This document shows, one piece after another, positions 25,365 to 28,388 of a DNA stretch of 64,000 nt. Within the stretch, counting starts at the first letter, position 1. The number at the start of each line of letters is the position of its first letter. Source of the stretch: a virus; IMG/VR virus record IMGVR_UViG_3300009428_000004, positions 10,467-74,466 of that record; one strand, 5' to 3'. The notes below the pieces were generated by a model. The model was given only the letters and a program-made list of their open reading frames with translations. It searched no databases and was not told the origin of the DNA. The translations under genes and the position numbers were made by a program.

Positions 25365-25832
25365 TCAAGAAAAGTTAAAATTTTCTACAAAGTCAGGGTA
25401 ATCCACAGCCTCTTCGGGCAACATTTCACCATCTTTGACTCTAAACCTAGTTACCTCACCCGTAGATCGGACATACTCTCTACCACCATCAATCATGTTT
25501 CCATCTAGGAACAGACACTCATGATGTGATCTGGAATACCAGTACTTACCATCTCTGTCTTTTACCATTCCAAACTGATATCTATCAGAAGTCTCTATCG
25601 CATCTGCGTCTGTAATCATGATTCGGGCATCATTAGCAAAAGGATTCTTGTATAGTCCAAAGTAGCGATTGCCAAACTCTGGATGTGGACTCTCTCGGTA
25701 AAAGATATCTACTGGCAAATCGCTTGCCAATAGATCAGTTGTACACACGTATTTGATAGACACGCCATCCTTGTTCTCGTAATAAGATATAGCTTTCTTT
25801 CTATCAAACACGGGTGCATGATTAATTTCCAT
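25365..25832 (-). CDS. Hypothetical protein
   Basis: DIFYRESPHPEFGNRYFG...IDGGREYVR. Confidence 0.7.
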   Translation of the reverse strand: MEINHAPVFDRKKAISYYENKDGVSIKYVCTTDLLASDLPVDIFYRESPHPEFGNRYFGLYKNPFANDARIMITDADAIETSDRYQFGMVKDRDGKYWYSRSHHECLFLDGNMIDGGREYVRSTGEVTRFRVKDGEMLPEEAVDYPDFVENFNFS

Positions 25833-26073: not shown

Positions 26074-26107
26074 AAAAACCCCCTAAGACGATAAAAGCCT
26101 TAGAGGG
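26074..26107 (-). terminator. Rho-independent terminator
   Basis: CCCTCTAAG-GCTTTTATCGT-CTTAGGGGG-TTTTTT. Confidence 0.75.
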
Positions 26108-26181
26108 TCAGGTATAAGATAATTGCTTGGGTCCACGGTGTGTCGGGTCATATGTCTTACCTTATACCTTTATTTATGATA

Positions 26182-26420: not shown

Positions 26421-26496
26421 TGGTGCGCTTGAAAGGATTCGAACCTTTGACCCTCGGTTTCGTAGACCGATATTCTATCCACTGAACTACAAACGC
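26421..26496 (-). tRNA. tRNA-Arg (anticodon ACG)
   Basis: GCGTTTGTAGTTCAGTGGATAGAATATCGGTCTACGAAACCGAGGGTCAAAGGTTCGAATCCTTTCAAGCGCACCA: cloverleaf with encoded CCA. Confidence 0.97.
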
Positions 26497-26706
26497 CTTA
26501 TTAAAAGGTCTGGGTGCTCTTAACGCTTCCCTGCCTACTAAAGTGATCTGTTATTGATCATGAACTTTAGGGCTCCACGCTTCAGTGCTAACGCATCCCA
26601 GCACACGGACTACTGTCATCGGGTAATTTTTTTACAGTTGCGAAACTGCTTCATCTTCATATGCATTACCATTAGCATACTATTCGGTGGCAAACCGACT
26701 GGTTAG
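26497..26706. ncRNA. Candidate structured non-coding RNA upstream of tRNA-Arg
   Basis: 210 nt without a long ORF; several hairpins and long-range helices; repeated GA(A/T)GCGT motif. Confidence 0.55.
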
Positions 26707-26946
26707 TTATGCGCCATACGCCCAATGGCCGTAGTCGCTGAGATACTTCTCAGCCGCAAAGTTAAACTCGATTTCAAGCTCACTATCGTCAAGCTCTGAT
26801 CCAAAAACCTCATGCATAGTCATAGTGATATCTGCATCAACGAAGTTCCAATTAATAGAATTGTCTGCTTCGTGGTTTTCAGTGGACTCAACAGCACTCC
26901 TAAAAGCTCTGTTAAATTCTTCAAGTTGATATTTAGTCATCATCAT
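26707..26946 (-). CDS. Small acidic early protein
   Basis: INWNFVDAD; behind a TTGACA-N17-GATAAT promoter. Confidence 0.65.
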   Translation of the reverse strand: MMMTKYQLEEFNRAFRSAVESTENHEADNSINWNFVDADITMTMHEVFGSELDDSELEIEFNFAAEKYLSDYGHWAYGA

Positions 26947-27212
26947 ATAGGTCTCACTCTCTTATCAAGTTATGTACACATTATCGCATATTACGAACCG
27001 TTTGTCAAGTACTTTCTTTATAACTTTGGCACATCATCACATTGACAGAGTTTAGCTTCTTGCCTATCAATAAGCAAGTCTAGCTTTCGCTCAATATCAT
27101 CACACTTATCCATGAACTCGGACAAAAGTAATGACATCTCATCATTGTTAACCGCTGATTTAACAGTCGGGCTATTCCTCGATTTGATCATCCCTGATCC
27201 TTTCTTTTGTTA

Positions 27213-27585: not shown

Positions 27586-27662
27586 TGGCGTCCCCTGCAA
27601 GATTCGAACTTGCGACCTACGGCTTAGAAGGCCGTTGCTCTATCCAACTGAGCTAAGGAGAC
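27586..27662 (-). tRNA. tRNA-Arg (anticodon TCT)
   Basis: GTCTCCTTAGCTCAGTTGGATAGAGCAACGGCCTTCTAAGCCGTAGGTCGCAAGTTCGAATCTTGCAGGGGACGCCA. Confidence 0.97.
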
Positions 27663-27786: not shown

Positions 27787-28305
27787 TTATACAAGAGGCG
27801 TTCCTTTCTGCTCTTCCCAAATGTGGGTAGTTCCCATTGCTTCAAGCAATGCAATAGTTTCTGCCTTAAAGACAATCCAAAAGTTAGGATCGTTAGCTTC
27901 AATAGTAGTTGCATTGTGCATCATGTCAAAAGTCTTGATCACCCTAATCAACCAAGGGGCAGCCGCAAGTCTTGCCTGACACAACTCTTTTCTAACAGCC
28001 CTGTTTCCAACGAAGCTAGGAGTCTTAGTCAAGTACCAAACACCTTCAGCAACTTCTTTACTGAAACGCTCAACGATGTTCTCTTCAGTAGCAGGAGTAT
28101 CTTCAACAGTATCGTGAAGAAGAGCGATCTGTATTGCTGTAATAACGATCTCTTCTTCAGTCTCTTGCTCGTCTAGATAAGCCTCAACAAGATCAGCAAC
28201 AGCGATTGGATGCTCAATATAAGCTCCACCGTTGTACTTTCTTGTCTGCCCCTCATGCATCTCAGTGGCAAATTCTAACGCTTCAACAAAGGTATTCTTC
28301 AACAT
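27787..28305 (-). CDS. HD-domain hydrolase, small alarmone hydrolase (SpoT/Mesh1-like)
   Basis: HEGQTRKY..GAYIEHPIAVA...ALLHDTVEDT...IKTFDMMHNA; start at 28305, downstream of its promoter. Confidence 0.8.
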   Translation of the reverse strand: MLKNTFVEALEFATEMHEGQTRKYNGGAYIEHPIAVADLVEAYLDEQETEEEIVITAIQIALLHDTVEDTPATEENIVERFSKEVAEGVWYLTKTPSFVGNRAVRKELCQARLAAAPWLIRVIKTFDMMHNATTIEANDPNFWIVFKAETIALLEAMGTTHIWEEQKGTPLV

Positions 28306-28388
28306 ATTAACTCTCTCAATTAGATGTCTATTATACGACATCCGAGGTGTATTGTCAAGAACTTTTTCGGAATTCTTGACTTTTTTTA

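Follow-up and report, generated by a model that had tools for sequence, protein, structure and literature searches.

A covarying, pseudoknotted RNA of uncultured marine phages, often encoded next to tRNA genes

The gap between a small open reading frame and a tRNA-Arg gene on a T4-like marine phage contig almost certainly encodes a structured RNA. The element has 21 distinct homologues in about seven lineages of uncultured phages. They share a fold with few invariant unpaired bases, their neighbours are interchangeable and no coding is conserved among them. Orphan stable RNAs of phage tRNA regions are known already (T4 rnaC/rnaD, GOLLD); new here are the family of about seven lineages, its pseudoknot, the covarying stem beneath an AGUA loop, the dispensability of the tRNA, and the finding that the L335-type member belongs with the RNA of the window, that is, of the whole 64,000-nucleotide stretch analysed.

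Results

The RNA gene and its neighbourhood

The window derives from a 91-kb virus record that is 53% complete. The contig, from a T4-like marine phage, carries T4-type DNA polymerase, helicase, ribonucleotide reductase, peptidase and cobS-like genes. Kyanoviridae have the most similar DNA polymerase, at 53% in phage C48C1 and 46-48% in cyanophages. All genes around the RNA element lie on the minus strand. The element occupies the entire gap from the stop codon of a 79-aa ORF to tRNA-Arg(ACG), its 3' end lying 11 nt short of the tRNA start (26496). A promoter-like and a terminator-like site enclose a unit made of the 79-aa ORF, the RNA, the tRNA and a 72-aa ORF:

26980-27008, minus strand: sigma-70-type promoter-like site, 11/12 matches, TG extension; a consensus match only
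26707-26946, minus strand: 79-aa ORF, its stop codon immediately next to the RNA; in other lineages different genes or a tRNA take its place
26497-26706, minus strand: non-coding RNA gene; about 26699-26508 is folded, and 11 U/A-rich nt separate this part from the tRNA; 21 homologues
26421-26496, minus strand: tRNA-Arg(ACG), CCA encoded; likely processing site for the RNA 3' end
26400-26182, minus strand: 72-aa ORF, downstream of the tRNA and ahead of the terminator-like site
26077-26109, minus strand: intrinsic-terminator-like site behind the 72-aa ORF, where the unit ends; a consensus match only

The promoter-like site, whose -35 box and spacing are kept in L002, is by its match to the consensus the probable early promoter of the unit.

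Further upstream the window holds a second tRNA-Arg (UCU, 27586-27662) with its own promoter-like site (27929-27902) and, about 1 kb from the RNA, a stand-alone HD-domain gene (PF13328, SpoT-like hydrolase, 27787-28341); a similar-looking HD protein is encoded just upstream of member L365 (L365:729-1247). Small proteins with a His-rich motif followed by IDGG, possibly one family, are encoded shortly downstream of the RNA in several lineages (window 25365-25832; L330:4357-4734; L331:12418-12798; L335:6082-6409; L340:679-1137).

Homologues keep the RNA and change its neighbours

A search with a flanking protein and exact patterns yielded 16 distinct sequences, and a covariance model built on those 16 retrieved five further members from other marine virus records. 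Identity between lineages is 46-76% over a 109-position core (computed on 18 of the 21 sequences). With L305 the window shares 87% identity across the RNA element but 69% in each of the flanking ORFs. Weak matches of model R2 (L379-L386 and L388) were dismissed, the seven inspected all lying in coding-like sequence. The same model found nothing in 35 virus records picked up by chance patterns and one bacterial genome, nor, with stricter filters, in 11 GenBank phages including HTVC008M, Mosig, Melnitz-3, C48C1, cyanophages and T4. BLAST of six members against 50,697 annotated phages returned only tRNA or short chance words. An exact-pattern scan of GTDB genomes, a weak test that does not establish absence from bacteria, gave a single chance match in a coding region.

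Every member lies directly behind a same-strand gene, the RNA starting 5-18 nt past a stop codon or a tRNA CCA, and this upstream neighbour varies by lineage between unrelated ORFs and a tRNA. The 79-aa ORF is thus not a fixed partner of the RNA. Immediately downstream, 15 of the 21 members have a tRNA, which may be Arg(ACG), Arg(UCU), Trp, Pro or Met. The other six do not, and a tRNA is therefore not obligatory: L312 and L314, from a different phage type with a small terminase nearby, end at a terminator-like hairpin; L365, L366 and L387 lead straight into the next gene's promoter-like site; and L330 leads into an ORF. In L356 and L364 the RNA is flanked by tRNAs on both sides, so that tRNA maturation would release it. 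Since neighbours on both sides are interchangeable, control of one particular gene is argued against.

Some exchanges among close relatives deserve mention. L301 carries an RNA 96% identical to that of the window, and the tRNA-Arg(ACG) behind it (L301:2954-3029, against 26421-26496) is only about 78% identical, which suggests an independent swap of the tRNA allele. A gene for a glycine-zipper (PF05433-like) lipoprotein, absent from the window, lies upstream in relatives (L276:8937-9287, L291:2690-2923), and in L276 it replaces the 79-aa ORF directly ahead of the RNA. The tRNA directly ahead of the RNA in L364 is a tRNA-Ser with the rare anticodon ACU (L364:1387-1476); the tRNA-Arg next to the window RNA likewise has an A34 anticodon (ACG).

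A pseudoknotted fold established by covariation

Read on the minus strand, the fold consists of the P1 hairpin, the dinucleotide UA, an H-type pseudoknot with an inner hairpin, a 3-bp hairpin with an AGUA loop, and a long irregular hairpin:

26684-26698, minus strand: P1 hairpin, 5 bp, variable loop; in 21/21 members a 4-7 bp stem of differing sequence with the same end point
26682-26681, minus strand: invariant UA after P1
26659-26680, minus strand: P2, pseudoknot stem 1 (26680-26675 with 26664-26659); 93% of cells paired, 3/6 pairs with two-sided changes
26622-26670, minus strand: pseudoknot stem 2 (26670-26665 with 26627-26622); 6/6 pairs covary
26650-26658, minus strand: purine-rich P2/P3 junction with invariant G, A and A (columns 30, 31 and 37 of alignment A6)
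26634-26649, minus strand: P3 hairpin, 4 bp, 8-nt loop, within pseudoknot loop 3; 4/4 pairs covary
26633-26628, minus strand: A-run following P3
26606-26621, minus strand: best-conserved core, with invariant CGAUG, a 3-bp hairpin with invariant AGUA loop (26617-26608) and invariant CC
26508-26606, minus strand: 3' domain, a long irregular hairpin in the RNAalifold consensus, with compensatory changes at two pairs
26606-26593 with 26517-26508, minus strand: P4, base of the 3' domain
26593-26588, minus strand: conserved CGWWAG bulge, 28-30 nt after the core start
26581-26577 with 26526-26522, minus strand: P6 of the 3' domain, near a GGA/GAA loop
26573-26533, minus strand: P7 of the 3' domain, the variable tip

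Alignment A6 comprises 18 sequences. In it 15 of the 19 tested pairs are changed on both sides and 89.8% of cells are paired, against 29-45% in slid controls, with a leaning towards the two of the five helices that were held by the model to which it was fitted; none of 500 shuffles reaches the observed covariation values. In the MAFFT alignment A4, which was not fitted to any structure, the two pseudoknot stems are paired in 95.5% of cells versus 25-46% when slid. Three lineages have 6 bp in stem 2, the rest 3-5 bp. The stem of the AGUA hairpin, with which the CGAUG overlaps, occurs in four covarying forms (GAC/GUC, GGC/GCC, GAA/UUC and GCA/UGC). A comparable long 3' helix is predicted in other lineages. 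Throughout, the stem sequences change and the invariant bases concentrate in junctions and loops. The tip of the 3' domain tolerates insertions, as an 18-nt insertion in L229 that adds an extra hairpin shows (L229:184-240).

Folding energy is unremarkable (z of -0.58 on the minus and -2.32 on the plus strand, with mixed values in homologues), and the case for an RNA therefore rests on covariation. On the minus strand G-U pairs outnumber A-C oppositions 34 to 11, a count biased by the choice of pairs. This excess, together with the orientation of the tRNAs and of the terminator, supports the minus strand as the RNA strand; an argument for the plus strand from a GNRA loop is void, because the loop in question varies.

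The region had been proposed, from a sequence-only reading, to be a novel phage ncRNA, and the 21 homologues with their covarying pairs, together with the lack of an Rfam match, bear this out. All the motifs quoted at that time are present, as is a 14-codon frame (26676-26632, minus strand). Compensatory changes uphold the first hairpin, UCGGU/ACCGA (26698-26684), the base of the long 3' hairpin (then drawn as CUAAAG/CUUUAG) and, at six of six pairs, the long-range pairing GGUAAU/AUUACC. The last of these becomes a pseudoknot through the helix 26680-26675/26664-26659, which the sequence-only reading lacked, as it did the AGUA-loop hairpin. The CAGUU/AACUG hairpin (26649-26634) also shows compensatory changes, but as a 4-bp stem with an 8-nt loop rather than with the 5 bp first drawn. 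A helix equivalent to CUGGG/CCCAG exists in other lineages, with some mismatches, while within its own lineage the pairing is invariant. The GUGCU/AGCAC hairpin does not hold, two of its five pairs breaking in five of eight close relatives. The threefold GA(A/U)GCGU is indeed there, but at chance level (343 of 1000 shuffles hold an equally repeated 7-mer), and other lineages do not keep it.

No known RNA family is matched

In Rfam searches at gathering and E-value thresholds, the window and members of every lineage gave tRNAs and chance matches only. Self-cleaving ribozymes (hammerhead, twister, pistol, hatchet, HDV-like) had no match at E<=5-10 in the window region or in members from other lineages, and bacterial A-type RNase P RNA (RF00010) had none at E<=10 in the window's own record. 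When the P4/CR-I/CR-V features of RNase P RNA were considered, the CR-I-like word proved to be a covarying hairpin. As for ncRNAs associated with reverse transcriptases (retron, DRT), the same record, 53% complete, has no PF00078 match, and the other loci have no conserved neighbour of reverse transcriptase size. Look-alike words for group I intron R/S, SRP, 16S helix 34 and cobalamin riboswitches are not conserved across members. The core motif occurs in no searchable paper; an unnamed earlier listing among the 10,006 candidate viral RNAs of PMC10690425 is possible. As far as can be searched, the fold is undescribed, with no matching Rfam family, annotated phage record or paper.

The element is not a recognisable tmRNA derivative

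The sequence-only reading had offered a tmRNA-derived mRNA-like domain as one possible identity. A tmRNA is recognised by a tRNA-like domain, by a tag frame that has no start codon, spans 8-35 codons and closes with a stop and a degron, and by bases ahead of that frame which SmpB reads (PMC8012679). The tmRNA covariance models RF00023, RF01849, RF01850 and RF01851 detected their controls and gave nothing at the locus (E<=5-10), and ARAGORN found no tmRNA in the window or in the whole record. A tRNA-like domain is absent, as had been stated from the outset, the 3' end of the RNA being paired in P4.

The frame of 14 codons in the window, L229, L291, L301 and L364 loses its stop and exceeds 40 codons in L002, L276, L321 and L322, and five members stop it immediately; its first codons lie inside covarying helices. 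Across all lineages no reading frame is conserved, and there is no Ala-Ala end. The UAGU word precedes, and partly lies inside, covarying helix P2 instead of forming an unpaired resume context. What had seemed an echo of tmRNA pseudoknot 3 shrinks to a GGA/GAA internal loop, present in some lineages only.

Further candidates were rejected. A start-less 10-codon frame from the core GAU (26620-26588) has a fixed UAG in 17 of the 21 members, but L356, L365, L366 and L387 have lost it while retaining the fold. Changes within this frame are for the most part non-synonymous, its last codon is for Arg, it has no degron, and the positions SmpB would have to read (PMC8012679) take part in pseudoknot stem 2. 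Another frame, rich in Met and running from 26678, looks conserved in the close lineage and is absent in others. The 5' arm as an antisense to the tmRNA resume region comes down to a 6-nt word, which a single lineage has in some of its P1 loops. Aligning the whole element with E. coli tmRNA, rRNA and RNase P RNA gave marginal short words only. L312 and E. coli tmRNA have an 11-nt word in common (p about 0.04, uncorrected).

The likeness to tmRNA (RF00023, RF01849-RF01851) is thus confined to a pseudoknot followed by A-rich sequence, the UAGU word and the GGA/GAA internal loop, in an RNA that differs from it in having no tRNA-like domain, conserved tag frame, degron or model score. A tmRNA-derived template is largely refuted, and that either frame, of 14 or of 10 codons, should supply a tag in trans is highly improbable in spite of the fixed UAG, the loop resembling that of E. 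coli pseudoknot 3 and the L312 word. A two-piece tmRNA gene, circularly permuted and with a tag of 14 codons that ends in ALAA, lies on a marine virus contig (L070:2246-2637).

Metatranscriptome contigs covering the RNA

In four marine metatranscriptomes, which come from two studies, the RNA is covered by contigs at summed depths of about 3-55 and in at least three sequence variants, one of which carries a compensatory change at 26571/26535. The contigs bridge the RNA to the upstream ORF and to the tRNA, and therefore show a precursor or DNA and not the free RNA. The downstream ORF has no cover by RNA contigs, which was not counted as evidence. As contigs indicate neither the strand nor the ends of an RNA and DNA carry-over is possible, this cover is a weak indication of transcription and does not speak for processing.

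Discussion

My best guess, held tentatively, is that early transcripts are cut to yield a stable RNA which acts in trans and binds a putative host or phage protein; the protein sponge of the sequence-only reading comes close to this. An RNA of 160-230 nt would be transcribed within an early unit, as the promoter-like and terminator-like sites suggest. RNase P cleavage is established for tRNA 5' maturation, and release of the RNA 3' end by host RNase P at the 5' end of the next tRNA is plausible for 15 of the 21 members; in the others the end would be set by a terminator or by other processing. Covariation demonstrates that the RNA folds in two parts, a compact 5' domain made of a hairpin, the pseudoknot and the hairpin with the AGUA loop, and a long 3' hairpin whose tip varies freely. 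The invariant unpaired bases of the RNA may together make up one surface on which a protein or ribonucleoprotein docks. This partner would most likely belong to host translation, RNA turnover or anti-phage defence, and the RNA would sequester it in trans as a decoy, a role assigned by default. Covariation far above slid and shuffled controls, conservation above that of both flanking ORFs, the gathering of invariant bases in junctions and loops, the changing neighbours, the lack of a conserved frame and, weakly, the metatranscriptome contigs favour the trans-acting RNA; ordinary folding energies, the bridging of those contigs into ORF and tRNA, and the lack of a cultured carrier (BLAST against 50,697 annotated phages, model R2 on 11 GenBank phages) count against it. 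Quite possibly, phages exchange the RNA as a cassette, in many cases together with tRNA genes. Its presence both in T4-like myophages and in the different, small-terminase-type phage of L312 and L314 suggests horizontal exchange and a host target common to marine bacteria.

Position could also be read as a sign of action in cis, by a 3' structure that blocks nucleases and stabilises the upstream mRNA, or by a put-like antitermination element, since the RNA always stands directly behind a same-strand gene to which metatranscriptome contigs join it. This is unlikely: in L356 and L364 the RNA follows a tRNA and not an mRNA, L312 and L314 already have a terminator hairpin after it, and a plain roadblock does not need invariant loop sequences. 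The start close behind a stop codon or CCA, the pseudoknotted core, the few invariant junction bases and the freely varying stems would also suit a new class of self-cleaving ribozyme with which marine phages cut tRNA arrays and early polycistronic transcripts into units, for which theta ribozymes adjoining phage tRNAs provide a precedent (PMC10879173). However, no ribozyme family scores in Rfam, the RNA is larger than most small ribozymes, and the flanking tRNAs already encode their CCA. Hammerhead-like words (UA, GAUGA, GAA) are present, but by inspection they are neither ordered nor paired as in the hammerhead core. Self-cleavage is quite unlikely.

Base pairing was considered because a 17-nt core is identical in four lineages and might be the seed for a host transcript. 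In the remaining lineages, though, this core is a covarying hairpin, and it pairs no better than shuffles with E. coli rRNAs, tmRNA, RNase P RNA and two tRNAs or with a phage tmRNA, which makes a base-pairing small RNA very unlikely. There is a similarly slim chance that the RNA is a ligand-binding aptamer, or assembles with itself without a protein partner. In size and in the conservation of its junctions it does resemble manA of marine T4-like phages (PMC2864571) and other orphan riboswitch candidates, but it has no consistent downstream gene and no expression platform, and 15 of the 21 members precede a tRNA. An RNA of 160-230 nt with few invariant bases lends itself to inexpensive self-cleavage assays and probing, and to use as bait for a partner.

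Among known systems, the stable RNAs species 1 and 2 of T4 (rnaC, rnaD) offer a comparable setting: they too are of stable-RNA size, uncoded and within a phage tRNA cluster. In the present family a tRNA follows 15 of the 21 members, and two have tRNAs on both sides. By contrast with the T4 RNAs, which end in a T-loop and CCA or in CCA, the present RNA has neither; it has a pseudoknot and an AGUA hairpin instead, and its model finds no match in T4. GOLLD and ROOL are several times longer than the present RNA, and GOLLD often lies near tRNAs. Both are likewise orphan structured RNAs of phages and environmental DNA (PMC12286853), but the present RNA has no match in Rfam. The manA and wcaG motifs, also found in marine metagenomes and in T4-like phages (PMC2864571), lie in 5' UTRs of metabolic genes, whereas the present RNA follows a gene, usually precedes a tRNA and again lacks an Rfam match. 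Theta (HDV-like) ribozymes of gut phages share with it a pseudoknotted structure adjoining phage tRNA genes (PMC10879173); the present RNA is about three times longer, is without their nested double pseudoknot and lies 5' of tRNAs or behind ORFs. To the few stable RNAs that phages carry beside their tRNA genes, this family adds a well-supported, compact pseudoknotted fold.
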